From positions 9,314 through 73,313 of the forward strand of contig NZ_JASGEC010000060.1 of the NCBI RefSeq assembly GCF_047606685.1: a stretch of DNA of 64,000 nt. The letters run 5' to 3'. Under the pieces are notes generated by a model. The model did not search any database and had not been told where the DNA came from. It worked only from the letters and a program-made list of their open reading frames with translations. A program made the translations under genes and the position numbers. Below are positions 27,535 to 49,667 of this stretch, piece by piece. The stretch's first letter is position 1; each line of letters opens with the position of its first letter. Source of the stretch: Microbacterium sp. Lineage in GTDB: Bacteria; Actinomycetota; Actinomycetes; Actinomycetales; Microbacteriaceae.

Positions 27535-28380
27535 ATGCGGCGGTTGATTCGATCAACGCGGGCAAAGGTAGTCGCGGCGATGGTGGTTGCCGGCACACTG
27601 ACTGCGCTCGTTGCCCCGCCTGCGCACGCGGCGACCTTGATGCTCAACCTCAGGTTCGACAACCAATCGCTCGGCAGCACGATTACCAGTCCGACGATCT
27701 CGGGCAGCGCATCGGAGTCGGTCACGTCGTCAGTCCTCACACTGAACGCCGGGCTGGCGGTCACGGACGTTGGCGCGCCAGGAAGCGGCCGTGCGATGCG
27801 GCTGCCTGCATACTCTCCTCTGGGAACACCACCACCACTCGCCGTCGTGTCGATCATCAACGGCTCGGGCACGGATGACCTGCTCAATCCAGGATCGGGC
27901 CGGTTCAGCTTCAGGGCCGACTTCTCCCTCGATGACACTTCGGGCAACGCCCCGAGCAACAGCGACGGAGACAACATCTTCCAGCGCGGTCTCAGCCCGA
28001 ATGCCCAATGGAAGCTGAGCGTTGATGGGCACATGGCGCAGTGCTCGGTCCGCGCCGCCGGAGCATCGGCAGCGGTGCATACTCCAGCAATTGCCATCCC
28101 CAACAAGACGGCCAACGTCAGCTGGTACCGAGCCGAGTGCTTGCGAGACACCGACGCGGCGGGCACCCTGAGCTTGACCGTCTCGTACTACGACACTTCT
28201 GCCGGCTCCTGGATCAGCCTCGCGTCCTCTCAAGCAGCGGGCGCAGCGGGCGATCTGACTATGAGCCGTACCATCCCGGTCAGCATCGGCGGGAAGCTCA
28301 ATAACAACAACACAATCCAGCAGAGCGCTCCAGACCAGTTCAATGGGCTCATCGACAACGTCAAGCTCATCATCGGTTGA
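27535..28380 (+). CDS. Secreted LamG-like (concanavalin A-like lectin) domain protein
   Basis: The signal peptide ends in PPAHA. Matching motifs are DGDNIFQRGL...QWKLSVDGHMAQCSV, WYRAECLR, SIGGK and APDQFNGLIDNVKL. Confidence 0.7.
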   Translation: MRRLIRSTRAKVVAAMVVAGTLTALVAPPAHAATLMLNLRFDNQSLGSTITSPTISGSASESVTSSVLTLNAGLAVTDVGAPGSGRAMRLPAYSPLGTPPPLAVVSIINGSGTDDLLNPGSGRFSFRADFSLDDTSGNAPSNSDGDNIFQRGLSPNAQWKLSVDGHMAQCSVRAAGASAAVHTPAIAIPNKTANVSWYRAECLRDTDAAGTLSLTVSYYDTSAGSWISLASSQAAGAAGDLTMSRTIPVSIGGKLNNNNTIQQSAPDQFNGLIDNVKLIIG

Positions 28381-28394
28381 CGCGGGAAACTGGG

Positions 28395-29408
28395 TCAGAT
28401 CCCGCGTCCGCGATTGTGCAAGAACTCCATCACCCGATCCGGCCGAACCAGTCCGACTGCGACTGCGACGGTCAACGGAGCGCGTAACTCGAGCGGGTTA
28501 CGTCTCCAAGAGCTAGCAGCCCAGCGAACGGCACGTCGCCGGTTCCCCATTGCGGCGTGAGCGAACGCAATCTGGCCTCGAACTCGGGCGGACCCTCGGC
28601 GCGATGCCTCAAACTCGGGGTAGCGCCGAAGAAGCCACGTCAAGCCGGCGGCCATTGTCTCCCAACGGCGGAAGAAAAAGGACTGCTTACCCCAGCGCAC
28701 GACGACGAGCGGGGCGGCGACGTTTACTATGGGGTGCAGCTTGGCGTGCCGCAAGAGGAACTCATAGTCTTCGCCAAAACCACCGGGTACCTGCTCGTCG
28801 ACCAACCCAACTGCATCGAGAAGGGAACGACGCAGGAGGAAGGTAGAGGGGTGAAGTTGAGTGTGACGATCTCGAAGGAGCGCGGTCATTGGAACTAATT
28901 CAGCGTCCAGCGTCCTATCAAACGTTTCACCGTCGTACTGCACCCGGATCCCTGTCGTCGCAAGGGAAGCATCCGGCCACGCAGAGATAGCCGCAATCTG
29001 TGCAGAGAGCCTGCCTGGAAGCCAATAATCATCGTCATCGCAGAAGGCGATGTACTCTCCCGCGGACGACCTGATGCCTGAGTTCCGCGCTCCCGCCAGA
29101 CCAACCTTGCGGGAATTTGTAGTTACACGAACTGAGCGGTGGTCACCCTCACGCTCGATGCCCTTGTCCGGCTCGCTCTGGTCAAACACGACGATCGTCT
29201 CAATGGGGCCAGAATAATCTTGACTCAACACGGCATCCACTGCTTCTCGGAGCATCTCCGGCCGGTCTCTAGTTGCTATAACAACCGAAACTAGCGGCAA
29301 CGGAGAGGTGATTGGACTCACCTCTTTAGGCAGCGTCTCGATCCGCTCTGAACCCCCGCCCGAAGTATACTTTCGCGCCAAGTGCTTCTCTTTCATGAGA
29401 GCGGGCAC
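28395..29408 (-). CDS. Family 2 glycosyltransferase
   Basis: The sequence has VSVVIATRDRPEMLREAVDAVLSQ, then ARNSGI, then YIAFCDDDDYWLP (the DxD motif). The start may be a few codons downstream. Confidence 0.88.
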   Translation of the reverse strand: MPALMKEKHLARKYTSGGGSERIETLPKEVSPITSPLPLVSVVIATRDRPEMLREAVDAVLSQDYSGPIETIVVFDQSEPDKGIEREGDHRSVRVTTNSRKVGLAGARNSGIRSSAGEYIAFCDDDDYWLPGRLSAQIAAISAWPDASLATTGIRVQYDGETFDRTLDAELVPMTALLRDRHTQLHPSTFLLRRSLLDAVGLVDEQVPGGFGEDYEFLLRHAKLHPIVNVAAPLVVVRWGKQSFFFRRWETMAAGLTWLLRRYPEFEASRRGSARVRGQIAFAHAAMGNRRRAVRWAASSWRRNPLELRAPLTVAVAVGLVRPDRVMEFLHNRGRGI

Positions 29409-29715: not shown

Positions 29716-31152
29716 TCAGCTGTCGGTGTAGCCCAGCCAGGCCCGCACCGGTGCAGTCAGCAACTTCACCGTGCGGCGCTGTCGGTCCGGCATTGCTTCT
29801 CGCCACGCTTCGTCCGGGCGGATGATCACCGGCCCCAGCTGGAACCTCATCGGATTTCCTCCGATCGAGTGCCCGGTCTCCAATTCCACACCGTCCCGCG
29901 CCGACAGATCGACGTCGTAAACCCCGGGCAACTCCAGCGCATCCCATGCACGACGGAGCGTTTCGGTCGGAGCCCGAACGAAGTCCTCGTATCGCATGCG
30001 GTGCACTTGAGCACCCACGGCCCTTGTCAACTGAATGAGCAAGTTGTTCGATGCCCAGAGGGCGGATGCACTCGCTGACGAGTACCGAGCCATGCTGGCA
30101 GCCCGCTCGCCGGTCTCGGGTCGGCTGACTTCCTTTGACCACGAATAAGCAACTGCCACGCTGTCGCGGACAAGGTGCAAGATCCGCAGGTCGACCCGCC
30201 GGTCGTTGCTTAGCGCGAGTGCCAACGACGCGTGCTTGGACGAATCCACGACGATGTCCGCACCACTCACCTTGGCCGCGGCATCGTACACGGCTCGATA
30301 GAACGAGGTGTACCGCAGGATCTCGTCTCGGGCGGCGACGCTGCGAGGCCGCAGCGTCCGAAGCACACGTCTCTGCCTGTCCACGGCCTGGTGGAGTGCG
30401 AGTACCTCCTCAGGATCTACTGCGGACCACCCGCCGAAAGCCTGCTCGCCGACGGCGATCCAAAAGGCACATTGAGAGAAGGGAGTGCCGCAACCGCACA
30501 GCTCGTCCTCGATGAGCCCACGTCTCCACAGGTGCACAACCTCGCCCAAGGAGACTGCGTTCGGGATAGCCGTTACTGCCCTCTCGACAAGAGTCGATCC
30601 AGACCGGCCAAACCCTCCGATGTAGAGCACAACCGGACCGACTGGTGCGAGGGGGCGACGACGGTCTCGGTTCGCCTCGACCGTCGACTCGAACATACGC
30701 ACCGTCGATTTCACGGCAGAGCCCTCTCCGCTATGACTGCCCCTCTGGAGCCGCGTGCCACCCGACTGCGGATGCACGAAATCGTCGAGTTCGGCGATGT
30801 CCTCACACCTTGACACAAGGCCGTGGCTCTCCGCCCATCGGCTGAATCGCAACTGGTGGTCGTCCACGTGCTCTCCGTGTCGCGGGTCGCGCGGCACAAC
30901 GATCGGGTAGTGCCCGGCGGCTCGTGCCGCCGATATCGTTCCTGGGCCGCCGTGTGTGATGACAACGGCCGCCTCTGCCATGCGTGCGGCAAGATCCGCG
31001 GGGCTGAGGTAGTCGACGCCCTCAGCGTGCTCCGGCGGTTTCGCCGACCCGTATTGCACCAGCACCTTCTGGTCCGGATTACGACGTGCCCACTTGTCGG
31101 CCCACGCGACCGCACGGTTGAACGGATGGTGATCGGTGCCGAGGACCATCAT
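29716..31152 (-). CDS. Fusion protein: Alg13-like half-glycosyltransferase (Glyco_tran_28_C, PssE/Cps14G-type) plus a Stf0/Sulfotransfer_3-like sulfotransferase
   Basis: The N-terminal ~150 aa have VLGTDHHPFNR, VLVQYG, VITHGGPGTI, IVVPR and GEHVDDHQ. The C-terminal ~330 aa have the 5'-PSB loop YIGGFGRSGSTLVER, a CGCGTPFSQCAFW motif and the 3'-PB-like LHLVRDSVAVAYSW. The start is chosen at VMMVLG (about 31152). Confidence 0.8.
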   Translation of the reverse strand: MMVLGTDHHPFNRAVAWADKWARRNPDQKVLVQYGSAKPPEHAEGVDYLSPADLAARMAEAAVVITHGGPGTISAARAAGHYPIVVPRDPRHGEHVDDHQLRFSRWAESHGLVSRCEDIAELDDFVHPQSGGTRLQRGSHSGEGSAVKSTVRMFESTVEANRDRRRPLAPVGPVVLYIGGFGRSGSTLVERAVTAIPNAVSLGEVVHLWRRGLIEDELCGCGTPFSQCAFWIAVGEQAFGGWSAVDPEEVLALHQAVDRQRRVLRTLRPRSVAARDEILRYTSFYRAVYDAAAKVSGADIVVDSSKHASLALALSNDRRVDLRILHLVRDSVAVAYSWSKEVSRPETGERAASMARYSSASASALWASNNLLIQLTRAVGAQVHRMRYEDFVRAPTETLRRAWDALELPGVYDVDLSARDGVELETGHSIGGNPMRFQLGPVIIRPDEAWREAMPDRQRRTVKLLTAPVRAWLGYTDS

Positions 31153-31166
31153 GACATCCAGACCGG

Positions 31167-31658
31167 TCACAGCAGCGGGCCTATCACGATGGCATCGCGG
31201 TAAAGTCGCTGCTGCTCGGGCCACTGCACCATCATGATGCTGGTGAAGGGCCTAACCAGGCGGCCAGTGAGGGTCGGGGTCTCGACGCGGTCATACACCT
31301 CGATGTACACCGTCGTCATCCGAAAGATCCGCGCAAGAATGAAGAACGGCAAGGCGACCCCGGCGCCGGTTGAAACAACGATCTCAGGACGGCGACCACG
31401 AAGCACCTTCCACGCGAGGCGCGCGTTGCGAAGCAGATTGGGGATGTTGCGGGTTGTCGGATGGTACGCCCACAGGACGTCTGGCTCGTCCTTCAGCAGC
31501 GCGCTCGCCTCGGGCGTCTCGAACGTCACCCACGTGTGCGGCAAGTGAGACCACCACGGCTGCAGCGACCAAAGTTGAGCGAGATGCCCCCCGCTGGAGC
31601 CCACAAGCACCACTCGCCCCTCCGCGGCGAGACTGCTGAGTGGCGTGCTTGCGGACAT
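31167..31658 (-). CDS. Alg14-like membrane-anchoring half-glycosyltransferase (PssD/Cps14F-type)
   Basis: Matching motifs are VLVGSSGGHLAQL, ARLAWKVLRGRRPEIVVSTGAGVALPFFILARIF, TTVYIEVYDRV, PTLTG and VQWPEQ. The start is at MSAST (ATG 31658). Confidence 0.82.
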   Translation of the reverse strand: MSASTPLSSLAAEGRVVLVGSSGGHLAQLWSLQPWWSHLPHTWVTFETPEASALLKDEPDVLWAYHPTTRNIPNLLRNARLAWKVLRGRRPEIVVSTGAGVALPFFILARIFRMTTVYIEVYDRVETPTLTGRLVRPFTSIMMVQWPEQQRLYRDAIVIGPLL

Positions 31659-31791
31659 ATTCACAGCATTGTACTGACGCGGAAGAGGCTCGTTGTCACC
31701 AGTCGGTCGAGGCAGTGGCAGACTGCCAGGTAGACTGTTGTGTTGATCACACCACAAGCCAGTCCAACGCTGGGGGGAGCGTAGAACGGAA

Positions 31792-33450
31792 GTGGACCCA
31801 CTGACAACGGATGTCGGGAGGCTGGATGCCTCTCGCCCACTCAATGCTATTCGGCATCGATTGCCCACGATCGCCCTAATCACGGGCGCCGCTCTTGTTG
31901 GTGCCACGGTGTTCACCGCGCTGTCACCACGGACCTACGAGTCGAGCACGAGCGTGCTGGTGGCGCCCGTGTCGACCGGCGCAGATGTCGACATTGAGAA
32001 CGGGCGGACGAAAGGCACCATCAACCTGGATACCGAGGCCCAGATCGTGCGGTCAGTCGCCCTCGCGGACGAAGTGGCCGACATGCTCGACTCCGACCTC
32101 TCTCCTCGAAAGCTGGCCGAGTCCGTCTCGGTCACAGTCCCGGCGAACAGCCAGGTCCTCGATATCACCTTCGAGGGCCCAACCGCCGACGAGGCGATGG
32201 CGGGCGCCAAGACCTACGCCGAGGCCTATCTCGATCAGCGTCGCACCAGCACTGAGGATTCTTTGGCGGACGCGCGCAGCGACATCCTCGATCAGATCGA
32301 TGAGTTGCAGACGGAGTTCGCGGACGCGACCGCCCGCAGTCGCGACTCGAAGCTCAGCAAAGCCGACCGCACTATTGCCTCCACCAGACGAGACTTGCTC
32401 CTCAGCCAAATCTCTTCGCTCAACGCCAGCCTGACGTCGATCAGCGGGTCGAGAGTCGATCCGGGACACGTCCTCAGCACCGCGAACTATCCAGACAGCC
32501 CCGCCTCCCCCAGCTTTCCGATCAATTTGTCGGCAGGGCTCCTGCTAGGGCTGCTGATCAGTTTCGCGTTCGCCGTAGTGAGCGGGCGGTTCGACCATCG
32601 GATACGAACTCCACGTGACATCAGGCCGCCCACGGGAGCAGTGCGCGTGCATCAGGAACTCTTGAATCTCTCGGAAGGCATCGCTGAAGACCTCCCAGCG
32701 GACAACGTCGATCAGTTGAGGGTGGCAATCGATTCGTTCGGATCGAACGAGCCACGCGCTGTGCTGGTGGCTCCCGTGGGAGCGCACCGGGACGCCGACA
32801 CTCTCGCACTCGCTCTCGGCCATTCCTACGCTCGCCGGCTTGGCTCTGCCACCTGCGCGATTGCAAGCACAGCCGAATCGAATGAAACAGAAGCGATTGG
32901 ACTGACGGACCTCTTCGCCGGAGATGGGGCCGTGAAGCCTGTCGCGCTTGACGACTCGGGGCTGGCGGTGATCGGCCCCGGAAGAAACCCTGAGCGACTC
33001 GGCGTGATGCTTCAGCGGCCGCACGCCATCGAACGCGTGCTTCGACTGAGCGACACCGTCGTGGTCTTGTCTACTCCCTCACTTCACCTCTCGGCTGGCG
33101 CACAGTCCGTACTCCACGCGGTGGACCGGATCGTGCTCGTAGGTGTGGCCGGCTCCATGGACGACCGAGCGCTGGCACAGACGATCGAGGCTGTCGAACG
33201 GTCGCATTTCACAGGAACGACAACAGTTGTGCTGCTCAGCGCGGGTGATGAACTTCGGGATCGTCGCAAACGCCGGCTGGCCGGATCCGTGCCGAGCGAC
33301 GAGGTCGAGGCGCGCGCAGTAGACGAGGCACCCGAGACGGAAAGCGAGGCTGGGACGGATCACCGCCCCGAGCGTCTGCGATCTGACAGCGCGAGCAAAG
33401 GCGGCCGTCCACGCCCGACCACAAACGAGGAAGCGTCGGGCAGCGCATGA
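31792..33450 (+). CDS. Wzz/PCP-type chain-length determinant with a degenerate (P-loop-less) BY-kinase-like C-terminal domain
   Basis: The Wzz N-terminus has TM1, then YESSTSVLVAP...NLDTEAQIVRS, coiled-coil segments and TM2 (LSAGLLLGLLISFAFAVV). The C-terminus resembles a BY-kinase. However, Walker A is replaced by VAPVGAHRDADT, Walker B hhhhDTPP is replaced by VVVLSTPSL, and there is no C-terminal Tyr cluster. Confidence 0.75.
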   Translation: MDPLTTDVGRLDASRPLNAIRHRLPTIALITGAALVGATVFTALSPRTYESSTSVLVAPVSTGADVDIENGRTKGTINLDTEAQIVRSVALADEVADMLDSDLSPRKLAESVSVTVPANSQVLDITFEGPTADEAMAGAKTYAEAYLDQRRTSTEDSLADARSDILDQIDELQTEFADATARSRDSKLSKADRTIASTRRDLLLSQISSLNASLTSISGSRVDPGHVLSTANYPDSPASPSFPINLSAGLLLGLLISFAFAVVSGRFDHRIRTPRDIRPPTGAVRVHQELLNLSEGIAEDLPADNVDQLRVAIDSFGSNEPRAVLVAPVGAHRDADTLALALGHSYARRLGSATCAIASTAESNETEAIGLTDLFAGDGAVKPVALDDSGLAVIGPGRNPERLGVMLQRPHAIERVLRLSDTVVVLSTPSLHLSAGAQSVLHAVDRIVLVGVAGSMDDRALAQTIEAVERSHFTGTTTVVLLSAGDELRDRRKRRLAGSVPSDEVEARAVDEAPETESEAGTDHRPERLRSDSASKGGRPRPTTNEEASGSA

Positions 33451-34814
33451 TGGTCTCGGTCCTCTCGACCGAGACCGCCGCTGGCAAGCGGACGCTACCC
33501 CCGTCTTGGCCGGTTTGGGCCGCCACCGCCGCGTACCCCCTGTGGTGGGCGCTCGGCCTCACCACCGTGATCTACCCCCTGCTCGCCGTTGTACTCGCCC
33601 TTCGTCTGCTTTACATGCGACGTCTCAAACTTCCGCCCGGCTGGCTGTTCTGGGCCATGTTTCTGCTGGTGGTCGTGGCGAGCATCGTCATGCTGGACGT
33701 GGATGCACCTGGCACGGCCACGCAAAGCGGGATAGGCCCGTACGGCGCCTATGCGCTGCGGTTTCTCGATTATCTGTGCTTCACGCTGCTGCTGCTGTAC
33801 GTGGGGAACCACAGTGAACAGACGTTGCCCTTGCGCAGCGTTATCGCCGCGTTCTCAAGCTTGGCTGCGTCTGTGGGCCTTCTCGGACTAGCCGGCACAC
33901 TCCTCCCGACATTCTCGTTCCGCACTCCGGCGAGCTACGTGTTGCCCGAGGTTCTCGTGGGCGACGGCGCGGCGAGGCTCGCGCAAGTGCAGGACATTCT
34001 CGGCGAGGGGGCAGCCCCGAGGCCCTCCGCTCCGTTCGACTACACGAACACGTGGGGCGAGGTCTTGTCGATGGCCATGGTGTGGCTCGTCGTGTATGCC
34101 GTGGTCTTCCGCGCACGGCGGAAGTCAATCGGTCTCGTCCTGGGACTCTCGATTATTCCGACCATCGCCTCCCTGAACCGGGGGATGTGGATCGGAATTG
34201 TGCTCACGATCGCGTACGTGGCGGTGCGACTCGCGATGCGGCTTCGCCTCGCCTTGGCTGTCAGCATCGTTGCGCTAATCGCGGTGGCGGGCGGCGTGCT
34301 CGCTATCTCCCCTGCTGGCGAGCTGATCGAGGCGAGGCTTGAGAGCGGGCATTCTGACCAGATCCGCGAGAACCTCGCGAATGACTCCCTCCGGCTAGCG
34401 AACGAGTCTCCAATTCTCGGCTTCGGGTCGACTCGTCGAACTCAAGGCTCCTACGAGTCGATCGCGATCGGGCCATCCGCGAGCTGCAGCCAATGTGGCG
34501 AGCGTGTTATTGGCAGCACGGGACAGCTCTGGCTTCTCCTGGTTGCGCAAGGCTGGCTCGGCACAATCCTCTACTTCACCTTCTTCGCATACGCGCTATG
34601 GACCTTCAGGCGAGATCACTCGCCAGCCGGGATCGCAGCGTCGGCAGTGATCCTTCTCTCGATCTATTACTCCTACTTCTACTCTGCGATCGGGACTCCT
34701 CTTGCGATGGCGATGCTCGCCGTCGCGATGCTGTGGCGCAGTGCTCAGGAACGCTCTCTCGCTGCGGAACAGATGAGCACCAATGACGGCGAGAAGAGCG
34801 GCCTCAAGCCATGA
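33447..34814 (+). CDS. O-antigen ligase/Wzy-like polymerase, polytopic membrane protein
   Basis: It has about 10-12 TM helices and a periplasmic loop with LNRGMWIGIVL...RL, as in the Wzy_C family. Its start overlaps the Wzz-like stop by 4 nt. Confidence 0.7.
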   Translation: MMVSVLSTETAAGKRTLPPSWPVWAATAAYPLWWALGLTTVIYPLLAVVLALRLLYMRRLKLPPGWLFWAMFLLVVVASIVMLDVDAPGTATQSGIGPYGAYALRFLDYLCFTLLLLYVGNHSEQTLPLRSVIAAFSSLAASVGLLGLAGTLLPTFSFRTPASYVLPEVLVGDGAARLAQVQDILGEGAAPRPSAPFDYTNTWGEVLSMAMVWLVVYAVVFRARRKSIGLVLGLSIIPTIASLNRGMWIGIVLTIAYVAVRLAMRLRLALAVSIVALIAVAGGVLAISPAGELIEARLESGHSDQIRENLANDSLRLANESPILGFGSTRRTQGSYESIAIGPSASCSQCGERVIGSTGQLWLLLVAQGWLGTILYFTFFAYALWTFRRDHSPAGIAASAVILLSIYYSYFYSAIGTPLAMAMLAVAMLWRSAQERSLAAEQMSTNDGEKSGLKP

Positions 34815-35944: not shown

Positions 35945-36807
35945 CGACCCCAAAAGACCTGCTCAGGCGTCTTGAGCCGCTTGCGCGAGGAACCGTGAGC
36001 ACTATGGCTCCTGTCACTGCGGCTCTGCGGTTGAAGCCGGCGTTCTTGATCGTCGGCGGGCAGCGCTGCGGCACCACATCGCTCTTCAAGACACTCGCGC
36101 AACACCCCGCAGTGGCACGCCCCTTCATTTTCAAGGGCATCCACTACTTCGACATGCACTATTCGAGATCCTTCGCCTGGTACCGGGGGCACTTTCCGCT
36201 TGAAGTCACGTCACGCCTTCGTCGGCTTCGCGGAGCGGGTCCGATCACCGGGGAGTCCAGCCCGTTCTACGGCTTCCACCCCCTCGCAGCGCAACGGATC
36301 GCGAACGACCTTCCCAATGTCCGCCTCATCATGCTGCTCCGCGATCCCGTGGAGCGCGCATACTCTGCCCACAGCCATGAGCGCGCGCGCGGCTTTGAGA
36401 ATGAGACGTTCGACCGAGCGCTAGAGCTCGAACAAGAAAGAACTCACGGAGAACGAGAGCGAATGATGCAGGACCCGTCCTACGTGAGCTTCCACCTACA
36501 GCATCACTCTTACATCGCACGCGGCCGGTATATCGAGCAGATCGAAGCGTTGCAATCCGCCGTCGGCAGGGAGCGTCTGCACGTCGTCGACTCGCACGAG
36601 TTCTTCACCCAGCCCGAAACCGTCTTCCCGGGGATCCTCCAGTTCCTCGGGTTAGAGCGCCACGCCGGCATCACCTTCGAACGGCACAACGCGCGAGACA
36701 GGAATCCCATGGAGACGAAGCTGCGCGAGCAGCTATTGTCGCGTTTCGACGAGTCAGATGCTCGTCTAGCCGAATGGTGGGGGCGTCCGCTTTCGTGGCG
36801 ACAGTAA
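35941..36807 (+). CDS. Sulfotransferase (Sulfotransfer_1-like, heparan-sulfate-sulfotransferase-type fold)
   Basis: The 5'-PSB loop is PAFLIVGGQRCGTTSLFKTLAQHP (Arg where Lys is more usual). Other matches are HYFD, WYRGHF, GESSPFY and the 3'-PB motif IMLLRDPVERAYS. The GTG start overlaps the previous stop (GTGA). Confidence 0.85.
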   Translation: MTTPKDLLRRLEPLARGTVSTMAPVTAALRLKPAFLIVGGQRCGTTSLFKTLAQHPAVARPFIFKGIHYFDMHYSRSFAWYRGHFPLEVTSRLRRLRGAGPITGESSPFYGFHPLAAQRIANDLPNVRLIMLLRDPVERAYSAHSHERARGFENETFDRALELEQERTHGERERMMQDPSYVSFHLQHHSYIARGRYIEQIEALQSAVGRERLHVVDSHEFFTQPETVFPGILQFLGLERHAGITFERHNARDRNPMETKLREQLLSRFDESDARLAEWWGRPLSWRQ

Positions 36808-42758: not shown

Positions 42759-43745
42759 TCACTGCTGGACGATCGTCCGCCATGCCTCCCTTGAGGGAAC
42801 GTCTGTCAGCCTGAAGTCGTTGCCTCTGGATGACACGGTGTCGTAGTACGTGACGAACAGAGCTCCTTCTGCACGCAGGTAGACAGCGATATCCCTCAGC
42901 CATTCGGCGCGTTGCGTCCCGTTGTCGGCACCCATCAGCAGAGAACCAGTCTCCGCGATCGCGAATGGCTTCTTCTCCGCCTTCGACACCTCGATCGGCG
43001 CGCTGAAGATAGTGTCCGGCGACTGGTAGCCGGAACCGTCAATTGCGTTATACGGGTCCCAGCCCAGCACATCGACGTACGCGGCCCCCGGATAGTAATC
43101 ATCGAAGTCCCGGCCCGATGCCGGTTCTACCGTCCAGCCCATCAGGATCAAGGTGGAGTGCAGGTTGGAGCGACATTGCTCGCGAGAGAGCATCGCAATG
43201 TGCTTCCAGGCCCGACGAAACTCGTCCGCGCTGAACGCACCGCGCTCGATCTCATCTTCCGGCTCGTGAAAGTACGTCCAGAACACTTGGACGTCGCGGG
43301 GCGCGTTGCCGAACCAAGCCCGTAGCGCGGCATCGTGTCGCCCCGTCAGAACGCTCTTCGGATCTATCTTGAAGGACACGACGAGGTCAGTGCCTTTGCG
43401 GGTCGAAATCTCCTGCCAGTCCGGCAGACCGCCGAAGAATACGCGAATCGCTCGCGGTGTGCCGTAGTTGGTCATCGCGACATCCCACGCCTCCGCGACG
43501 CTTCGGCCGCTCGACCGGTCAAGAGACACTCCAAACTCCGTTCCGTGAACGGTGTCGGTGGCGCACGTGGCCATCCGGACAATCCGCGGGACGACCCAGA
43601 CCAACACCGCCGTGAGGAGCAGAATCAGGAGAATCGAAAGCAGGATGGACCGCCGTACGATGCGTGGCCCGCGGAACTGCCGCGGGCCCACGCTGATATC
43701 AGGTTCGATCGTGCACCTCTCAGCGCTGCGCGTTGACCGTGACAC
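42759..43745 (-). CDS. Membrane-anchored clan GH-A glycoside hydrolase, paralogue of 38348-39949 without the CBM
   Basis: It has an N-terminal TM helix (ILLSILLILLLTAVLVWVV). The catalytic motifs are VFWTYFHEPEDE and FAIAETGSLL. It is collinear with the catalytic part of the other hydrolase. Confidence 0.72.
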   Translation of the reverse strand: MSRSTRSAERCTIEPDISVGPRQFRGPRIVRRSILLSILLILLLTAVLVWVVPRIVRMATCATDTVHGTEFGVSLDRSSGRSVAEAWDVAMTNYGTPRAIRVFFGGLPDWQEISTRKGTDLVVSFKIDPKSVLTGRHDAALRAWFGNAPRDVQVFWTYFHEPEDEIERGAFSADEFRRAWKHIAMLSREQCRSNLHSTLILMGWTVEPASGRDFDDYYPGAAYVDVLGWDPYNAIDGSGYQSPDTIFSAPIEVSKAEKKPFAIAETGSLLMGADNGTQRAEWLRDIAVYLRAEGALFVTYYDTVSSRGNDFRLTDVPSREAWRTIVQQ

Positions 43746-43884: not shown

Positions 43885-44170
43885 CCACCTCGATCAAGCC
43901 GCGGCGGCGGCGGCGCTTCTGAACGATCACCGGCTCGAACGTGCCGGCACGGTCCCTGAGCACGTCGATCCGCACCGGGCCGGCCTTGGTCGACACCGTC
44001 TTCGACCGCGTCCTGTTCCGCGCGTTCCCCGCCTTTCGTGGCGGTGCCCTTGTCGCGCATGTCATAGCCGAGGTGGCCGGTCAGCTCGTCCTCCAGGGTG
44101 TACTCCACGACCAGCTTGGTCAGCTGCGCCAGCAGGCCACCCTCCCCGTCGAGCGCGACCCCGCGGGGCG
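43885..44170 (-). mobile_element. IS256-family transposase N-terminal remnant, frameshifted and truncated
   Basis: One frame reads LDGEGGLLAQLTKLVVEYTLEDELTGHLGYD. The next frame reads GNARNRTRSKTVSTKAGPVRIDVLRDRAGTFEPVIVQKRRRR. Together they match the first ~95 aa of IS256 Tnp. The DDE part is absent. Confidence 0.75.
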
Positions 44171-44313: not shown

Positions 44314-45495
44314 TCAGGACAGGATCCCCCGCTGCGTGAGCAGCCCCGTTACGGCGTCGACGCACTCTTCGACGCTCAGCTGCGACGTGTCGAGCACGAG
44401 GTCGGCGTCGGTTGGCTCCTCGTACGGCGAGTCGATGCCCGTGAAGTCGGAGATCAGGCCCGCGCGCGCCTTCGCGTAGAGACCCTTGCGATCACGCGAC
44501 TCGGCGACCGCGAGCGGGGTCGACACATAGACGACGACGAACGGCGAGTCGGGCTCGACCTTGCCCCGCATCGCATCGCGCGACGACGCGAACGGCGCGA
44601 TCGGCGCGCACACCGCGAGCCCGCCTGCCTCCGCGACCCGGGCGCCCACCCACGCGATGCGACGCAGATTCGTGTCGCGGTCGTCGCGGCTGAAGCCGAG
44701 CTCGGCAGCCAGCTCGTGCCGCACGTGGTCGCCGTCGAGCAGCACCGCCTTGTGCCCCCCGGTCGACGACACGCGCTCGACGAGCGCGCGGGCGACGGTC
44801 GACTTGCCCGCCCCCGACAGCCCGGTGAACAGCACGACCGCGCCGCCGGTTGCTGCGGAGACCGGATGCCGCAGGTCGACGACCTCGGCGGCTCCCCGGC
44901 CCTCGGCCACGACGCGGGCGACATCGGCGTCTGCGCCGAGGTCGACGGCGGGCAGATACCACGCGCGCGCGTCGGGCAGCAGCGCCGCCGCGTCACGCAG
45001 GTCGGCGACGAGCGCCGCCGAGCCCGCGTCGCCGGCGACGCCGACCGCGACGAGGTCGAGGCCGCGATGCCCCGCGGCTTGCGCCGCGCGCAGCACGTCG
45101 GCGGCGGCCACTGCCCCGCCGAACAAAGCGACCACGCGGTCGTCGAAGCGCGTTGCCGACGTGATGCGCAGGTCGCGGGCGATGCCGTGCGCCGGAGGTC
45201 GCAGCTCGGCGACCGGGCCGCTCAGCCACGCCGACCCGCTCGCCGACGCGACGGCGTCGATGCGCAGCTCGGCCAGCGGCGTGTTCTCGGGGTCGCACAA
45301 GTGCACGAGCTGGCCGCGACCGAGGCCCGCCGCCACGCTCGGGGCCACCTCGAGGAGCGCCGCCACCGGCCACGCGTCGGGCTTGGAATCGGGCAGGCAG
45401 TAGCCGTTGACAGGAGCCAGCGCCCCGCCCAGGATCAGCTCGAGCGCCTCGAGCCGGTCGCCGGCGAGCACGAGCACGGCGTCGGCGGGCATCAT
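44314..45495 (-). CDS. cysC: Adenylylsulfate (APS) kinase with a ~210-aa N-terminal extension resembling a degenerate ATP-sulfurylase PUA-like region
   Basis: The C-terminal half has VVLFTGLSGAGKSTVARAL, LLDGDHVRHEL, LGFSRDDRDTNLRRIAWV, APIAPF and DRKGLYAKAR. The N-terminus has DRLEALELILGGALAPVNGYCLP. I did not see the sulfurylase QxRNPxH/HxxH motifs. Confidence 0.85.
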   Translation of the reverse strand: MMPADAVLVLAGDRLEALELILGGALAPVNGYCLPDSKPDAWPVAALLEVAPSVAAGLGRGQLVHLCDPENTPLAELRIDAVASASGSAWLSGPVAELRPPAHGIARDLRITSATRFDDRVVALFGGAVAAADVLRAAQAAGHRGLDLVAVGVAGDAGSAALVADLRDAAALLPDARAWYLPAVDLGADADVARVVAEGRGAAEVVDLRHPVSAATGGAVVLFTGLSGAGKSTVARALVERVSSTGGHKAVLLDGDHVRHELAAELGFSRDDRDTNLRRIAWVGARVAEAGGLAVCAPIAPFASSRDAMRGKVEPDSPFVVVYVSTPLAVAESRDRKGLYAKARAGLISDFTGIDSPYEEPTDADLVLDTSQLSVEECVDAVTGLLTQRGILS

Positions 45496-46547
45496 CCGTT
45501 CACCTCGCCGGGATCGCCGCGTTTCGTCTCGCTTCGCTCGCTCAACGACCGGGACGGCTCAGTCCCACTCAACGACCGCGAGGGCTCAGCCTTCGCAAGA
45601 CTCTCCTCCCGCAGCCGTTTTGCTTCACGCCAGCGTCGATTCTCCACGCTCGCGAGCGGGTGGAAGCCGTGGTGGCGGCGGATGAGCGCCCACACGACGG
45701 GCCCGAGCACGAGGGCGGAGACCAGGATGACACCCGTCGCCTCGTTGCTGACCTCGAGCAGCTTCAGGCCCGACGCGAGCAGCACGAAAGCGAGCGCGCG
45801 GCGGATGAAGCCGCCGGGCAGCCGCGACGACAGCTGCGCGCCGATGTAGGCGCCGGGCACACTGCCGATGATGAGCGGGATCGAGATCGCAAGATCGAGA
45901 TCGCCGAACAACGCGTGCGCGATCGCCGCTGAGACGACAAGCGGCACAGCCTGCACGAGATCGGTGCCCACGAGCTGGCTGGCCTTCAGACCCGCGTACA
46001 TCATCATGAGGCCGATGATGATGAGCGACCCCGACCCGACCGACGTCATGCCGACGATAAGGCCGCCGATCGCGCCGAGCGCGATCGTGGGAATCACCTT
46101 CACCTCGATGTCGGGCCGGTCCTGCGGCAGCGGCTCGCCCTTGCCGTCGCGGCTGCGCGCCCGCTCGACGAGCCGCATGTACGCGCGCACCATGAGCATC
46201 GTCGCGGTGAACAGGATCGCAATGCCGAGGGCGAGCTTGACGGCATGCTGCACGTTCGCGTCGTCACCGAGCCCCTTGAGGATGAAGACGCCGGCGAACG
46301 CGGTGGGCACCGAGCCGATGCAGAGGTAGAGCACGAGCTTGAGGTTCACCGTGCCGCGCCGCAGGTGCACGAACGAGCCGACAGGCTTCATCACCGCGCT
46401 CGCAACTAGATCGCTCGAGACCGCCGCGAGCGGCGAGACGCCGAAGAAGAGCACGAGCATCGGCGTCATGAGCGCCCCGCCGCCCATTCCCGTCAGCCCG
46501 ACCACGATGCCGACGAACAACGCGCCGAGAACCATCCCCCAGTCCAT
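45492..46547 (-). CDS. TauE/SafE (DUF81) family anion permease, candidate sulfate importer of the CysZ(Cg) type
   Basis: The sequence has MDWGMVLGALFVGIVVGLTGMGGGALMTPMLVLF, then about 8 TM helices. The second half-repeat is IGGLIVGMTSVGSGSLII. The start is at ATG 46547. Its stop overlaps the cysC start (ATGA). Confidence 0.82.
   Translation of the reverse strand: MDWGMVLGALFVGIVVGLTGMGGGALMTPMLVLFFGVSPLAAVSSDLVASAVMKPVGSFVHLRRGTVNLKLVLYLCIGSVPTAFAGVFILKGLGDDANVQHAVKLALGIAILFTATMLMVRAYMRLVERARSRDGKGEPLPQDRPDIEVKVIPTIALGAIGGLIVGMTSVGSGSLIIIGLMMMYAGLKASQLVGTDLVQAVPLVVSAAIAHALFGDLDLAISIPLIIGSVPGAYIGAQLSSRLPGGFIRRALAFVLLASGLKLLEVSNEATGVILVSALVLGPVVWALIRRHHGFHPLASVENRRWREAKRLREESLAKAEPSRSLSGTEPSRSLSERSETKRGDPGEVNG
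45531..45589. repeat. Two tandem copies of a short dispersed motif (CTCAACGACCG-N6-8-GCTCAG) inside the 3' end of the TauE gene
   Basis: The sequence is GCTTCGCTCGCTCAACGACCGGGACGGCTCAG followed by CACTCAACGACCGCGAGGGCTCAG. The 16-mer TCGCTCAACGACCGGG recurs at 56533-56548. Confidence 0.7.
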
Positions 46548-46747: not shown

Positions 46748-47506
46748 GTGACCAATGACGCGAAGGCGGCCGCCGCGCTCGCCCGCGAAGCGGGCCAGCT
46801 ACTGCTCGACGTGCAGCGCAACGCGAGCGCGGACGAGCTCGGCACGAAAGATCTGAAAGACAGAGGGGATGCCGCGAGCCAGCGGTACCTCGCGCAGGCG
46901 CTGGCGGAGCGGCAGCCGGGCGACGCCGTGCTGTCGGAGGAGGCGGCCGACGACCTCGCCCGCCTCGATGCCAAGCGCGTCTGGATCATCGACCCGCTCG
47001 ACGGCACCCGCGAGTTCTCTGAGGGCCGCCACGACTGGGCGGTGCACGTCGCGCTGTGGTCGGAGGGCGAGCTGAGCGCCGGCGCGGTGGCGCTGCCCGG
47101 CGTCGACACCGTGCTCTCCAGCGCCGACGCGCCCCGTCAGTGGCAGCGACCCGACCGCATCCGCCTCGCCGTCTCGCGCAGCCGCGCGACCGCCCTCGTG
47201 CAGGCCCTCGCCGACGAGCTCGGCGCCGAGCTCGTGCCGATGGGGTCGGCCGGCTACAAGGCCGCGGCCGTCGTGCGCGGCGAGGTCGACGCCTACGTGC
47301 ACACCGGCGGCCAGTACGAGTGGGACTCGGCAGCCCCGGTCGCCGTCGCCCGCGCCGCCGGCCTGTTCACGTCGCGGGTGGACGGCTCGCCGCTGGTGTA
47401 CAACAACGAGAACCCGTACCTGCCCGACTTGGTAGTCTGCAATCCGCTGATCGCCGACGATGTGTTGCGACGCCTGAGCGCGCTCCTGGAGGGGGAGTCC
47501 CGATGA
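46748..47506 (+). CDS. cysQ: 3'(2'),5'-bisphosphate nucleotidase (PAP phosphatase), inositol monophosphatase family
   Basis: Matching motifs are VLSEEAADD, WIIDPLDGTREF and the WDSAAP motif. It has a GTG start. Its stop overlaps the cysD start (ATGA). Confidence 0.85.
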   Translation: MTNDAKAAAALAREAGQLLLDVQRNASADELGTKDLKDRGDAASQRYLAQALAERQPGDAVLSEEAADDLARLDAKRVWIIDPLDGTREFSEGRHDWAVHVALWSEGELSAGAVALPGVDTVLSSADAPRQWQRPDRIRLAVSRSRATALVQALADELGAELVPMGSAGYKAAAVVRGEVDAYVHTGGQYEWDSAAPVAVARAAGLFTSRVDGSPLVYNNENPYLPDLVVCNPLIADDVLRRLSALLEGESR

Positions 47507-48423
47507 CCGAAGTGACCGAGGCAGACCGCTACGGGCTCACCCAGCTCGACTACCTCGAGGCCGAGGCGATCTTCATCATCCGCGAGATCGTCGCCGAGAA
47601 CGAGAGCCCCGGCATGCTCTTCTCGGGCGGCAAAGACTCGATCGTGATGCTGCACCTCGCCGCAAAGGCGTTCGCGCCGGCATCCATTCCCTTCCCGGTC
47701 GTCCACGTCGACACCGGCCACAACTTCGACGAGGTGATCGAGTACCGCGACCGCCGCGTCGCCGAGCTCGGCGTGCGCCTCATCGTCGGCTCGGTGCCCG
47801 ACGCGATCGCCGCGGGCCTGGTGCGCGAGGAGCCGAACGGCTCGCGCAACCGCATCCAGACCCCCGTGCTGCTGAAGACGGCCGAGGACCACGGCCTGAC
47901 CGCGCTCATGGGCGGCGCGCGGCGCGACGAGGAGAAGGCCCGCGCGAAAGAGCGCGTCTTCTCGTTCCGCGACGACTTCGGCCAGTGGGATCCGAAGAAC
48001 CAGCGCCCCGAGCTGTGGTCGCTGTACAACGGCCGCATCCACCCGGGCGAGAGCATCCGCTGCTTCCCGCTGTCGAACTGGACCGAGCTCGACATCTGGG
48101 AGTACATCGCCCGCGAAGGCATCGAGGTGCCCTCGATCTACTACGCGCACGAGCGCGAGGTGTTCCTGCGAGGCGGCATGTACATGGCCGTGAACCAGCA
48201 CTGCCAGCCCAAAGAAGGCGAAGAGGTCTTCACCGAGACCGTGCGCTATCGCACGGTCGGCGACGCCACGCTGACTGCCGCCGTGCTATCGCAAGCGCGC
48301 ACCGCGGAGGACGTGGTGGCCGAAGTGGCCGCGACGCGCATCACCGAGCGCGGCGCGACGCGCGGCGACGACAAGGTCAGCGAAGCGGCGATGGAAGACC
48401 GCAAGAAAGAGGGCTACTTCTGA
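47503..48423 (+). CDS. cysD: Sulfate adenylyltransferase subunit 2
   Basis: The sequence contains LTQLDYLEAEAIFIIREIVAE...MLFSGGKDSIVMLHLA (PP-loop SGGKDS), ARRDEEKARAKERVFSFRD and WELYN-type WSLYNGR. The long upstream extension in the ORF track is an artefact. Confidence 0.95.
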   Translation: MTEVTEADRYGLTQLDYLEAEAIFIIREIVAENESPGMLFSGGKDSIVMLHLAAKAFAPASIPFPVVHVDTGHNFDEVIEYRDRRVAELGVRLIVGSVPDAIAAGLVREEPNGSRNRIQTPVLLKTAEDHGLTALMGGARRDEEKARAKERVFSFRDDFGQWDPKNQRPELWSLYNGRIHPGESIRCFPLSNWTELDIWEYIAREGIEVPSIYYAHEREVFLRGGMYMAVNQHCQPKEGEEVFTETVRYRTVGDATLTAAVLSQARTAEDVVAEVAATRITERGATRGDDKVSEAAMEDRKKEGYF

Positions 48424-49667
48424 TGGACATCCTCCGCTTTGCCACCGCGGGCTCGGTCGACGACGGCAAGAGCACCCTCATCGGGCGCCTGCTGTACGAC
48501 TCGAAGTCGATCTTCACCGACCAGCTCGACGCCGTCGAGCGCACGAGCGAGCAGCGCGGCGACCAGTACACCGACCTGGCGCTTTTGACCGACGGCCTGC
48601 GCGCCGAGCGCGAGCAGGGCATCACGATCGACGTGGCGTACCGCTACTTCTCCACGCCGCTGCGCAAGTTCATCATCGCCGACACCCCCGGGCACATCCA
48701 GTACACGCGCAACATGGTCACCGGCGCCTCGACCGCCGACCTCGCCATCATCTTGATCGACGCGCGCAAGGGCCTGCTCGAGCAGAGCCGCCGGCACGCG
48801 ACGATCGTGTCGCTGCTGCGCGTGCCGCACGTCGTGCTCGCGATCAACAAAATGGACCTCGTCGACTGGTCGCAAGACGTCTACAACGAGATCAGCGGGG
48901 CGTTCCGCGACTTCGCGGCGCGGCTCGACTTCGCCGACGTCACCGCCATCCCGGTTTCCGCCCTCACCGGCGACAACGTGGTGACCCGCTCGCAGAACAT
49001 GCCGTGGTACGAGGGCCCGTCGCTGCTGCACCACCTCGAGCACGTCTACATCGCGAGCGACCGCAACCTGGTCGACGTGCGGTTCCCGGTGCAGTATGTG
49101 ATCCGGCCGCAGAACGGCCGCGGCGACTTCCGCGGCTTCGCCGGCCAGCTGGTCAGCGGCGTCATCCGCCCCGGCGACGAGATCGTCGCACTGCCCAGCG
49201 GCCTGCCGTCGCGCGTGCGCGCGGTGAGCACCGCCGACGGCGAGCTCGAAGAGGCCTACCCGCCCATGTCGATCACGGTGCAGCTCGAGGACGAGGTCGA
49301 CATCTCGCGCGGCGACATGATCAGCCGCCCGCACAACCAGCCGCTGGCGACGCAGGATGTCGACGCGATGGTCTGCTGGATGGACACGGCCCCGATGAAC
49401 GTGGGAGCCAAGTACGCGATCAAGCACACGACGCGCTCGGCGCGGGCGATGGTGAAAGACATCCAGTACGAGCTCGACATCAACACGCTGCACCGTGAAC
49501 AGTCGCCCAGCAGCCTCGGGCTCAACGGCATCGGCCGCGTGACGCTGCGCACGACGCAGCCGCTGCTGGTCGACCCCTACCGCCGCAACCGGCAGACCGG
49601 GTCGTTCATCCTGATCGACGAGGCAACCAACCGCACGGTCGGCGCGGGGTTCATCACCGAGAACTGA
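48423..49667 (+). CDS. cysN: Sulfate adenylyltransferase subunit 1 (GTPase), without a fused APS-kinase domain
   Basis: The sequence contains LRFATAGSVDDGKSTLIGRLL (G1), DGLRAEREQGITIDVAY, ADTPGH (G3) and NKMD (G4). It ends at 415 aa with no CysC domain. Confidence 0.95.
   Translation: MDILRFATAGSVDDGKSTLIGRLLYDSKSIFTDQLDAVERTSEQRGDQYTDLALLTDGLRAEREQGITIDVAYRYFSTPLRKFIIADTPGHIQYTRNMVTGASTADLAIILIDARKGLLEQSRRHATIVSLLRVPHVVLAINKMDLVDWSQDVYNEISGAFRDFAARLDFADVTAIPVSALTGDNVVTRSQNMPWYEGPSLLHHLEHVYIASDRNLVDVRFPVQYVIRPQNGRGDFRGFAGQLVSGVIRPGDEIVALPSGLPSRVRAVSTADGELEEAYPPMSITVQLEDEVDISRGDMISRPHNQPLATQDVDAMVCWMDTAPMNVGAKYAIKHTTRSARAMVKDIQYELDINTLHREQSPSSLGLNGIGRVTLRTTQPLLVDPYRRNRQTGSFILIDEATNRTVGAGFITEN

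Follow-up and report, generated by a model that had tools for sequence, protein, structure and literature searches.

A candidate Wzx/Wzy-type sulfated exopolysaccharide locus with an adjoining PAPS supply module in Microbacterium

The stretch of DNA analysed here, 64 kb from the genome of the actinobacterium Microbacterium sp. (contig NZ_JASGEC010000060.1, positions 9,314 to 73,313; hereafter the window), carries a locus that combines the genes of a Wzx/Wzy-dependent glycan pathway with two sulfotransferase genes and a five-gene module (cysC, TauE, cysQ, cysD, cysN) predicted to supply and recycle the sulfate donor 3'-phosphoadenosine 5'-phosphosulfate (PAPS). An earlier note on this DNA had proposed that the module feeds sulfation of the glycan repeat unit made next door. 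Genes in the window were picked by G+C content at third codon positions (GC3) and annotated with Pfam and NCBIfam, and gene order was compared across related loci from three starting points: cysC, the sulfotransferase designated A below, and cysD.

Gene content of the locus

All genes named in the earlier note are present at or near the positions it gave them according to Pfam and NCBIfam, but the unit it described, which began at 27535, has to be extended: the functional unit comprises 16.5–49.7 kb of the window and starts at 16536 with the priming transferase (Table 1). The inventory also lacked a kinase-like gene, two GH26-like genes and five secreted LamG/PKD/AMIN proteins. By the same searches every class of a Wzx/Wzy-dependent pathway is represented (priming phosphoglycosyl transferase, cytoplasmic glycosyltransferases, flippase, polymerase and chain-length regulator), and the toolkit of priming transferase, GT2, Alg14/Alg13, Wzz, Wzy_C and Wzx is complete, as had been claimed. 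The priming transferase scores 414 bits against the NCBIfam model TIGR03025 (EPS_sugtrans; cut-off 296). G+C content is about 63% over the glycan island (18–43.7 kb) versus about 70% in the flanks and the cys genes.

Table 1. Features of the sulfated-glycan candidate locus, in window coordinates. Wps names refer to the Actinoplanes missouriensis wps-1 cluster discussed in the text.
Feature	Coordinates	Strand	Evidence
Priming polyprenyl-phosphate hexose-1-phosphate transferase (WbaP/CpsE type)	16536-18128	+	Bac_transf E 1e-70; CoA_binding_3
LamG-like lipoprotein	18252-19130	+	Lipobox LAIASC; weak Laminin_G_3, E 0.014; 32% identical to 27535-28380
Secreted PKD-repeat protein, 1127 aa	19248-22631	-	PKD_4 E 2e-64; signal peptide
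AMIN-like lipoprotein	22720-23385	-	PF24837 E 3e-10; lipobox
Secreted malectin and PKD protein, 1204 aa	23382-26996	-	Malectin E 7e-18; PKD_4 E 2e-43; 71% identical to L167 homolog
Secreted LamG-like protein	27535-28380	+	Signal peptide; paralog of 18252-19130; no Pfam match
GT2 glycosyltransferase (position equivalent to WpsA)	28395-29396	-	Glycos_transf_2 E 2e-22
Alg13-like glycosyltransferase half fused to sulfotransferase A (position equivalent to WpsB)	29716-31152	-	Glyco_tran_28_C; Sulfotransfer_3
Alg14-like membrane-anchoring glycosyltransferase half	31167-31658	-	PF08660 E 6e-10; ATG start checked
Wzz-like chain-length protein, degenerate C-terminal domain	31792-33450	+	Wzz E 6e-6; first of conserved five-gene block
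Wzy-like polymerase (Wzy_C)	33447-34814	+	PF04932 E 3e-8; 4-nt overlap with each neighbour
Kinase-like phosphotransferase (position equivalent to WpsI)	34811-35944	+	Weak APH match (Pfam)
Sulfotransferase B, heparan-sulfate-sulfotransferase-like (position equivalent to WpsH)	35941-36807	+	Sulfotransfer_1 E 9e-11; Sulfotransfer_3 E 2e-11
Wzx flippase	36774-38351	+	Polysacc_synt E 4e-14; MatE
CBM4_9 and GH26-like hydrolase (position equivalent to WpsE)	38348-39949	-	Pfam; weak match to PDB CtLic26A GH26 domain
Secreted LamG and PKD protein	40097-42745	+	Laminin_G_2 E 5e-11; PKD_4 E 1e-35; insertion relative to L167
Membrane-anchored GH26-like paralog	42759-43745	-	Weak GH26 match; 56% identical to GH26 domain of 38348-39949
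IS256-family transposase remnant	43901-44153	-	Transposase_mut positions 57-100 (E 4e-9) and 19-61 (E 0.15), in two reading frames
APS kinase CysC, N-terminal extension of about 205 aa	44314-45495	-	APS_kinase E 3e-54; TIGR00455 above cut-off
TauE/DUF81 permease (Corynebacterium glutamicum CysZ type), candidate sulfate importer	45492-46547	-	TauE E 1e-45
CysQ-type PAP phosphatase	46748-47506	+	Inositol_P E 4e-36; best NCBIfam match bisphos_cysQ, below cut-off
CysD, ATP sulfurylase small subunit	47503-48423	+	NF009214, 432 bits (cut-off 413)
CysN, ATP sulfurylase GTPase subunit	48423-49667	+	NF003478, 601 bits (cut-off 590); no fused CysC domain

Overlaps of 4 nt join Wzz to Wzy, Wzy to the kinase-like gene and the latter to sulfotransferase B; on these overlaps, the genes Wzz-Wzy_C-kinase-like-sulfotransferase B-Wzx read as a translationally coupled operon. 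The cys genes are packed as tightly, with 4-nt overlaps between TauE and cysC and between cysQ and cysD and a 1-nt overlap between cysD and cysN. On the opposite strand from the operon, the Alg14-like protein is 53–68% identical to homologs encoded upstream of the Alg13-sulfotransferase fusion in related loci, and the GT2 gene follows the family A sulfotransferase in nearly all of them. The long C-terminal domain of the Wzz-like protein has no Walker A motif. Its equivalent in Microbacterium sp. HD4P20 (locus L014) has an intact ParA/AAA_31 domain of the BY-kinase type and is followed by a low-molecular-weight phosphotyrosine phosphatase.

The kinase-like protein has 83 detected homologs, every one of them annotated as hypothetical. 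Residues K140, E154, H255-G-D257, N262 and D275, which make up the APH/choline-kinase catalytic signature, are all invariant, and the idea of a degenerate pseudokinase was rejected on that ground. An AlphaFold2 model (mean predicted local distance difference test, pLDDT, 92.7) matches APH, choline kinase, FN3K, homoserine kinase II and LicA in Foldseek searches. From the conserved residues and the model, the protein appears to be an active kinase, with a small molecule or a sugar as its predicted substrate.

Two sulfotransferases of different families

The two sulfotransferases that the earlier note had assigned to different families are confirmed as such by Pfam, and the labels given to them, RSGST-type and CGTT-type, are right: the Alg13-fused protein contains the motifs GGFGRSGST and RDSVAVAYS, and sulfotransferase B contains GGQRCGTTS and RDPVERAYS. 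Both proteins hold up in profile, motif and fold comparisons, each having the 5'-phosphosulfate-binding loop, the 3'-phosphate-binding motif and the sulfotransferase fold.

Most of the more than 1200 homologs of the fusion protein are actinobacterial. In an alignment of 18 sequences (44–70% identity) the glycosyltransferase motifs HGGPGT and GEHVDDHQ and the motifs GxGRSGSTL (the PAPS-binding loop), DSSK and RDxxxVxxSW are invariant, as is a cluster formed by H207, C219, C221 and C228 within the sulfotransferase domain, which suggests a candidate structural zinc site. The AlphaFold2 model (pLDDT 85.7) consists of two domains connected by a disordered linker. A plain sequence search of the fusion against the PDB returned one spurious match only; profile and fold searches were needed, and these relate the N-terminal domain to the C-terminal halves of GT-B glycosyltransferases and the C-terminal domain to the CurM/OLS, tyrosylprotein (TPST) and mycobacterial Stf sulfotransferases. 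In some relatives (e.g. P0019 and P0089), sulfotransferase A is additionally fused to the neighbouring GT2. Sulfotransferase B, by comparison, matches a bacterial sulfotransferase of solved structure (PDB 3rnl, E 7e-19) and the human heparan-sulfate enzymes NDST and 3-OST (about 1e-11). By eye, no obvious signal peptide or membrane segment is present in sulfotransferase A, sulfotransferase B or the kinase-like protein, which fits action at the cytoplasmic side, where PAPS and ATP are available.

The PAPS module

As the earlier note had described, cysC, a TauE/DUF81 permease gene, cysQ, cysD and cysN lie beyond a scar of an IS256-family insertion sequence (IS), cysQ being identified at the family level. 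The scar is real: two frame-shifted N-terminal fragments at about 43.9–44.15 kb cover Transposase_mut positions 19–100 of 379. TauE and cysC (46547 to 44314, minus strand) diverge from cysQ, cysD and cysN (46748 to 49667, plus strand). PDB structures of adenosine 5'-phosphosulfate (APS) kinase domains match residues 217–392 of CysC only. Its N-terminal extension (residues 1–205, encoded at 44881–45495) is conserved at 39–47% identity in Microbacteriaceae, Beutenbergiaceae and Aeromicrobium, and Pfam gives only a faint similarity to PUA_2; it may be a degenerate ATP-sulfurylase N-terminal domain. In the CysC relatives from Micromonospora the N-terminal regions are longer.

The claim that the window encodes neither cysH nor a sulfite reductase stands, on two kinds of search. 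Pfam scans of selected GC3-supported open reading frames found neither, a few such frames (e.g. at 51.6–52.5 and 60–62.4 kb) being unmatched or unscanned, and a six-frame motif search of the window for ECGLH, CCxxRKxxP and TGCxNxC found nothing; CysD is the only PAPS_reduct protein in the window. The linkage expected of an assimilatory cluster, in which cysH and sulfite reductase accompany cysDN (as in the cysIXHDNYZ cluster of Corynebacterium glutamicum), is thus absent here. An Rfam scan of the window also returned nothing, and there is therefore no riboswitch upstream of the cys genes. C. glutamicum, which lacks an APS kinase, has an APS reductase as its CysH, and its CysZ, a DUF81/TauE protein, behaves genetically as the high-affinity sulfate transporter (PMC1266029). 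Since assimilation through APS reductase needs no CysC (PMC1266029), CysC in actinobacteria of this kind would serve PAPS-dependent sulfation and not assimilation. Microbacterium fakhimi is without any sulfate transport, activation or reduction genes and cannot use sulfate (10.1101/2023.05.04.539371), so that the PAPS module is accessory in the genus.

Conserved linkage of the PAPS module to glycan genes

Three sets of loci were compared: 80 genomic loci retrieved with the CysC protein and searched with the window proteins; 80 metagenomic loci centred on sulfotransferase A, 12 of them with at least 17 kb of DNA; and the contexts of the nearest named CysD homologs. The most informative relative is Microbacterium sp. 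bgisy189 (L167), which is collinear with the window: PKD protein, GT2, sulfotransferase, Wzz, Wzy, kinase-like gene, sulfotransferase, Wzx and GH26 are followed by cysC-TauE/cysQ-cysD-cysN and on to a GT2-GtrA gene. GH26 there directly adjoins cysC, without an IS. Relative to this genome the window has gained Alg14 and Alg13 (fused to the sulfotransferase), the pair of a LamG-PKD gene and a second GH26 gene, and the IS remnant. The IS thus decorates the junction and did not create it, and we rejected the remnant as the source of the adjacency between cys and glycan genes. The scenario in which an IS brought a housekeeping cys set next to the island, by which the earlier note would have abandoned its proposal, is contradicted by this collinearity and by the recurrence of the arrangement elsewhere.

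In five of five Microbacteriaceae genomes (L014, L167, L169, L170 and L171) the complete module of five genes has sulfotransferase or glycan genes on its flanks, L169–L171 having been found via CysD alone. It occurs in a complete Microbacterium genome, in Microbacterium sp. GCS4 (L171) and bgisy189 and in Leifsonia sp. Root112D2, flanked by genes for a sulfotransferase, an APH-like protein, Wzz, Wzy or PKD/LamG proteins. In GCS4 a sulfotransferase gene begins 2 nt past cysN, and in HD4P20 the module lies between a sulfotransferase and a group made up of the priming transferase, the Wzz-BY-kinase and the phosphatase. In the cysC-centred set, TauE adjoins cysC in 22 of the 80 loci, and in the closest relatives (a metagenome-assembled genome, MAG, of Beutenbergiaceae; Leucobacter; an unclassified actinomycete; HD4P20; Spirillospora; Actinocatenispora; Phytohabitans) TauE-cysC, usually with cysQ-cysD-cysN, adjoins the same glycan genes, among them the collinear block Wzz-Wzy-kinase-sulfotransferase B-Wzx. 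TauE-cysC abuts this block in Actinocatenispora (L040); in Phytohabitans (L043) cysC lies near it, with a GH26-like gene in between, and TauE was not detected. This block and the block (Alg14-Alg13)-sulfotransferase A-GT2 recur in Microbacterium, Actinotalea, Cellulomonas, Micromonospora, Phytohabitans, Actinocatenispora and many metagenomic contigs.

Linkage is also evident when the search starts from sulfotransferase A: of the 12 loci that span 17 kb or more, 6 have cysD-cysN, typically within the glycan locus in the same-strand order priming transferase-cysQ-cysD-cysN with gaps of about 80–150 nt between aligned segments; in an Actinotalea locus the called genes overlap. These loci represent at least six lineages with at most about 80% nucleotide identity to each other. 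Chance would be expected to produce such a neighbourhood in about 0.5% of loci, which gives P of about 1e-11, or about 1e-7 with a conservative count. cysQ is linked to cysD-cysN every time in related loci, and more than 15 loci, which belong to several families of actinobacteria, show linkage of cysD, cysN or cysC to a sulfotransferase. In the cysC-centred loci with cysDN, none of the PAPS modules has a cysH motif next to it, and a lone TGCxNxC match, in L013, is about 2 kb from cysQ; isolated cysH-type matches occur in L009 and L036 only, 5–10 kb from cysC, where cysDN is absent. Together with the intact sulfotransferases, the synteny (L167, L169–L171 and the six or more lineages) and the lack of an adjacent cysH support the proposal that the cys module feeds sulfation of the neighbouring repeat unit.

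In L033, L055 and L063, MAGs of Acidobacteriota/Thermoanaerobaculia, cysC-cysQ pairs lie beside distant homologs of both sulfotransferases, Wzx and the priming transferase; the arrangement of cysC with sulfotransferase-bearing glycan genes may extend beyond Actinomycetota.

Secreted proteins and hydrolases

Genes for large secreted PKD, malectin or LamG proteins are conserved beside the locus in many genera. Homologs of the PKD-repeat protein at 19248–22631 occur in many related loci; it is 74% identical to the malectin-containing protein across the N-terminal 460 aa, a region of about that length for which no solved structure was matched by sequence in the large secreted PKD proteins. The AMIN-like lipoprotein gene adjoins a PKD protein in L167 as well, the first LamG-like lipoprotein has a homolog in the Cellulomonas fulva locus L001, and the GH26-like gene is kept beside the locus in L002, L006, L011, L086, L125 and L167. 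The three large secreted proteins (19248–26996 and 40097–42745) share PKD repeats and a similar C-terminal tail (...ALAADSGPL...AFLLS..L.P.G).

Relation to known systems

The closest described system is the wps-1 cluster of Actinoplanes missouriensis (AMIS_7280-7380, with AMIS_7390 beside it; Appl Environ Microbiol, June 2026; PMC13390465). It encodes WpsA (GT2), WpsB (sulfotransferase), WpsC (GT26), WpsD (DUF4262), WpsE (GH26), WpsF (methyltransferase), WpsG (Wzx), WpsH (heparan-sulfate-type sulfotransferase), WpsI (protein-kinase-like), WpsJ (Wzy) and WpsK (Wzz), and AMIS_7390 belongs to the sulfate adenylyltransferase/APS kinase family (PMC13390465). Every gene of the cluster except wpsD is required for normal sporangium formation or spore release (PMC13390465). 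A wpsB mutant has sporangia of normal appearance and releases about ten-fold fewer spores, and sporangium formation is disrupted by loss of any one of wpsH, wpsI, Wzx, Wzy, Wzz and AMIS_7390; for all of these but AMIS_7390 the paper describes squashed sporangia like those of the whole-cluster deletion, and the AMIS_7390 deletion is severe (PMC13390465). The authors predicted a sulfated exopolysaccharide (EPS), with verification awaited, and treated the AMIS_7390 phenotype as unexplained (PMC13390465).

Both clusters contain Wzx, Wzy and Wzz homologs (31792–38351 in the window), two sulfotransferases, of which one of the Sulfotransfer_3/Gal-GlcNAc type is next to GT2 and one of the heparan-sulfate type next to Wzx, a protein-kinase-like gene between Wzy and the second sulfotransferase (34811–35944), a GH26 gene and an adjacent gene of the APS kinase family, AMIS_7390 being immediately beside Wzz. 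The order WpsK-J-I-H-G equals that of Wzz-Wzy-kinase-sulfotransferase B-Wzx in the window. The Micromonosporaceae loci L040, L043 and L166, whose proteins are 32–61% identical to those of the window, bridge the two, and because the K-J-I-H-G order and the APS kinase are shared by the window and these three loci, we assign the window locus to the wps-1 kind; the likeness to wps-1 itself is one of published gene order and domain families (PMC13390465) and of the bridging loci rather than of direct alignment. There are also differences. GT26 (WpsC) stands in place of Alg14/Alg13, the first sulfotransferase is free-standing in wps-1 and Alg13-fused in the window, and the methyltransferase and DUF4262 genes are absent from the window, which has in turn TauE, cysQ, cysD, cysN and five LamG/PKD/AMIN secreted proteins. 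Furthermore, wps-1 functions in the sporangium matrix, whereas Microbacterium forms no sporangia. The Actinoplanes authors drew no link between the APS-kinase gene and PAPS supply. Three features are new here: the Alg13::sulfotransferase fusion, the inclusion of a complete PAPS module in the system, and how broad the family is.

Dedicated sulfate activation genes next to a sulfotransferase are known from other systems: the rhizobial nodP/nodQ with nodH and the Xanthomonas raxP/raxQ with raxST place cysD/cysN/cysC-type genes, as donor supply, beside a PAPS-dependent sulfotransferase that sulfates a secreted molecule. The locus family of the window resembles them in the genetic linkage of cysD/cysN/cysC to a sulfotransferase across actinobacterial taxa. 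Their acceptors are a lipo-chitooligosaccharide and a peptide and not a Wzy-polymerised glycan, and we know of no CysQ or TauE in these systems. The mycobacterial cysDNC/cysQ/Stf sulfolipid pathway is similar to the window in that CysC and CysQ serve sulfotransferases in an APS-reductase actinobacterium, and the fold of sulfotransferase A distantly matches mycobacterial Stf0, Stf1 and Stf9. Unlike that pathway, the window has no trehalose-lipid, polyketide synthase (PKS) or MmpL genes, its CysC is not fused to CysN, and the predicted acceptor is a lipid-linked oligosaccharide. The synechan (xss) cluster of Synechocystis sp. PCC 6803 (eLife 2021, PMC8205485) is reported to be a Wzx/Wzy-type EPS locus with sulfotransferases of its own. 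Among bacterial pathways for a sulfated EPS it was the best characterised in our literature search, and it belongs to a different phylum from the window.

Proposed pathway and alternative explanations

We propose, with a probability of roughly 0.7, that 16.5–49.7 kb encodes a Wzx/Wzy-dependent pathway that has its own PAPS supply and makes a sulfated heteropolysaccharide, either extracellular or associated with the wall. The gene identities, the intact catalytic and PAPS-binding motifs, the operon-like overlaps and the synteny that recurs across actinobacterial families are its observed basis. From gene identities, topology and synteny we infer the following probable order of steps. The WbaP-type transferase would place a hexose-1-phosphate on undecaprenyl phosphate; the Alg13-like catalytic half, recruited to the membrane by Alg14, would add the next sugar and GT2 another. 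On the cytoplasmic face, sulfotransferase A (fused to Alg13) and sulfotransferase B would each use PAPS to sulfate a hydroxyl or amino group of the lipid-linked repeat, their likely acceptor, and the kinase-like protein probably phosphorylates a sugar. The repeat unit would then be flipped by Wzx and polymerised by Wzy, with chain length set by the Wzz-like protein, to give a polymer that presumably retains its sulfate. Outside the cell, the polymer may be trimmed or released by the GH26-like enzymes, and the LamG, malectin and PKD proteins probably bind it. TauE is the putative route of sulfate import, from which CysD and CysN would make APS and CysC would make PAPS; CysQ would remove the inhibitory by-product 3'-phosphoadenosine 5'-phosphate (PAP).

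Several observations weigh on the other side. Ester sulfate has been chemically shown in no member of the locus family, wps-1 included. Sulfotransferase A is as close to the tyrosylprotein and polyketide sulfotransferases as to the carbohydrate ones. The annotations given to TauE-family proteins include sulfite or sulfonate export, CysQ falls short of the NCBIfam equivalog cut-off and is a family-level call, and cysDN may have an assimilatory role, with cysH elsewhere in the genome. Finally, cysC and TauE lie within 10 kb in none of the 80 metagenomic loci centred on sulfotransferase A, so the full module is not always contiguous with the glycan genes.

The strongest of the alternatives is that the sulfated oligosaccharide is not polymerised at all, the Wzy_C protein being a ligase or O-oligosaccharyltransferase that attaches it to the secreted PKD/malectin/LamG proteins or to another envelope acceptor, which would yield sulfated glycoproteins. 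Wzy_C (PF04932) is the O-antigen-ligase family, and a domain of this type also occurs in O-oligosaccharyltransferases of the PglL type. The proximity of the large secreted proteins in many genera and the absence of an LCP-type wall ligase from the locus in Pfam scans point in the same direction. The Wzz-like gene, however, is kept directly upstream of the Wzy_C gene and translationally coupled to it, which fits polymerisation, and nothing was found to indicate that the PKD proteins are glycosylated. In A. missouriensis, moreover, loss of the Wzz and Wzy equivalents gives the phenotype seen when the whole cluster is deleted, and the authors interpret wps-1 as a pathway for EPS (PMC13390465). 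We consider the glycoprotein explanation unlikely.

It is also conceivable that cysC-TauE-cysQ-cysDN is an ordinary sulfate activation set for cysteine synthesis, adjacent to the glycan genes only through insertion of the island and of the IS. The lower G+C content of the island, the IS256 remnant at the junction and the sulfur-nutrition genes just past cysN (an Rrf2 regulator and a sulfonate-type ABC importer) are compatible with this, and the search for cysH was confined to the 64-kb window. The comparative data largely refute it: adjacency without an IS is found in L167 and also in Leifsonia, Leucobacter, Beutenbergiaceae, Actinotalea, Micromonosporaceae and others, with a chance probability of about 1e-7 or lower, and it includes the same-strand orders priming transferase-cysQ-cysD-cysN and cysN-sulfotransferase. 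No cysH adjoins any of the modules, cysC is not required for assimilation through APS reductase (PMC1266029), and M. fakhimi does without all these genes. This explanation is accordingly very improbable.

Equally hard to sustain is the view that the polysaccharide is unsulfated and that the sulfotransferases are inactive relics or act, like mycobacterial Stf, on a lipid, menaquinone, peptide or secondary metabolite: although sulfotransferase A has its nearest structural relatives among polyketide (CurM, OLS), tyrosylprotein and mycobacterial (Stf1, Stf9) enzymes, it is covalently joined to a glycosyltransferase half and in some relatives to GT2, sulfotransferase B, encoded between the kinase-like gene and Wzx in the coupled operon, matches N- and 3-O-sulfotransferases of heparan sulfate, the PAPS-binding motifs are invariant across the fusion family, and Pfam scans found no PKS, lipid or peptide biosynthesis genes in the locus.

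The sulfated heteropolysaccharide pathway proposed above may have wider bearing. Animals, algae and cyanobacteria are familiar sources of sulfated polysaccharides, whereas other bacteria are much less well known for them. The earlier note called sulfated bacterial polysaccharides rare; they are less rare than that, because sulfated capsules exist in Vibrio and Cobetia. As to its statement that no case was known in Microbacteriaceae, our literature search turned up no usable account of sulfated Microbacterium glycans or of cysH in this genus, apart from the M. fakhimi genome report; the homologous Actinoplanes cluster, on the other hand, is already published as a putative sulfated EPS locus. 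That genetic study is the sole actinobacterial lead, and sulfation is unproven there (PMC13390465). The present results place its cluster in a large conserved locus family with a physical link to a module for PAPS supply and recycling, and PAPS supply offers an explanation for the AMIS_7390 phenotype. With members of the family in the easily grown, non-sporulating Microbacterium, Leifsonia and Cellulomonas, the question of sulfated glycans in actinobacteria becomes directly testable. The natural glycosyltransferase-sulfotransferase fusion and the self-contained PAPS cassette could also be of use in engineering microbial sulfated polysaccharides.

More tentatively, and with the balance of probability against it at present, the family might represent an unrecognised class, spread across Actinomycetota (for example in Microbacteriaceae, Cellulomonadaceae, Nocardioidaceae, Micromonosporaceae and Geodermatophilaceae), of sulfated and possibly phosphorylated envelope polysaccharides that have their own import, activation and PAP-recycling module, polyanion-binding LamG, malectin and PKD proteins, and a fusion coupling glycosyl transfer to sulfation. 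If so, the class would form a bacterial counterpart of the sulfated-glycan extracellular matrix, and the Alg13::sulfotransferase fusion would couple the two reactions on the lipid-linked intermediate.

Flanking genes

Directly after cysN, Pfam identifies a GT2 fused to a GtrA transmembrane domain (polyprenyl-phosphate glycosyltransferase type; 49866–51017, minus strand). The gene is found after cysN in L167 too and in the neighbourhood of the module in L171, and it is possibly associated with the predicted sulfated glycan; in Actinoplanes a separate GtrA-type cluster (gsf) is tied to the same phenotype as wps-1 (PMC13390465). Next comes a region (51052–54334, minus strand) with the Rrf2 regulator, whose best named matches, CymR and IscR, are both below cut-off, and beyond it the sulfonate-type ABC importer (SsuA_fam above cut-off, an ABC ATPase and a probable permease). 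GCS4 has this Rrf2-ABC set too, after cysN-sulfotransferase-APH. The set may control the PAPS module, or it may be a sign of organosulfur nutrition.

The left end of the window looks like the remnant of a conjugative or integrative element, with a TrwC relaxase and an AAA_30 helicase (64–3276), a PIN and HTH_17 pair (3305–4494) and a RES-domain protein (8197–8535). The possibility that the glycan island rides on this element was rejected, because housekeeping genes (PHO4, cytosine permease, hisD, nitrilase) separate the two. At the right end of the window are a weak resolvase-like fragment (59480–59959) and a proline-rich protein with an Mrr_cat restriction-endonuclease domain (62601–63971).

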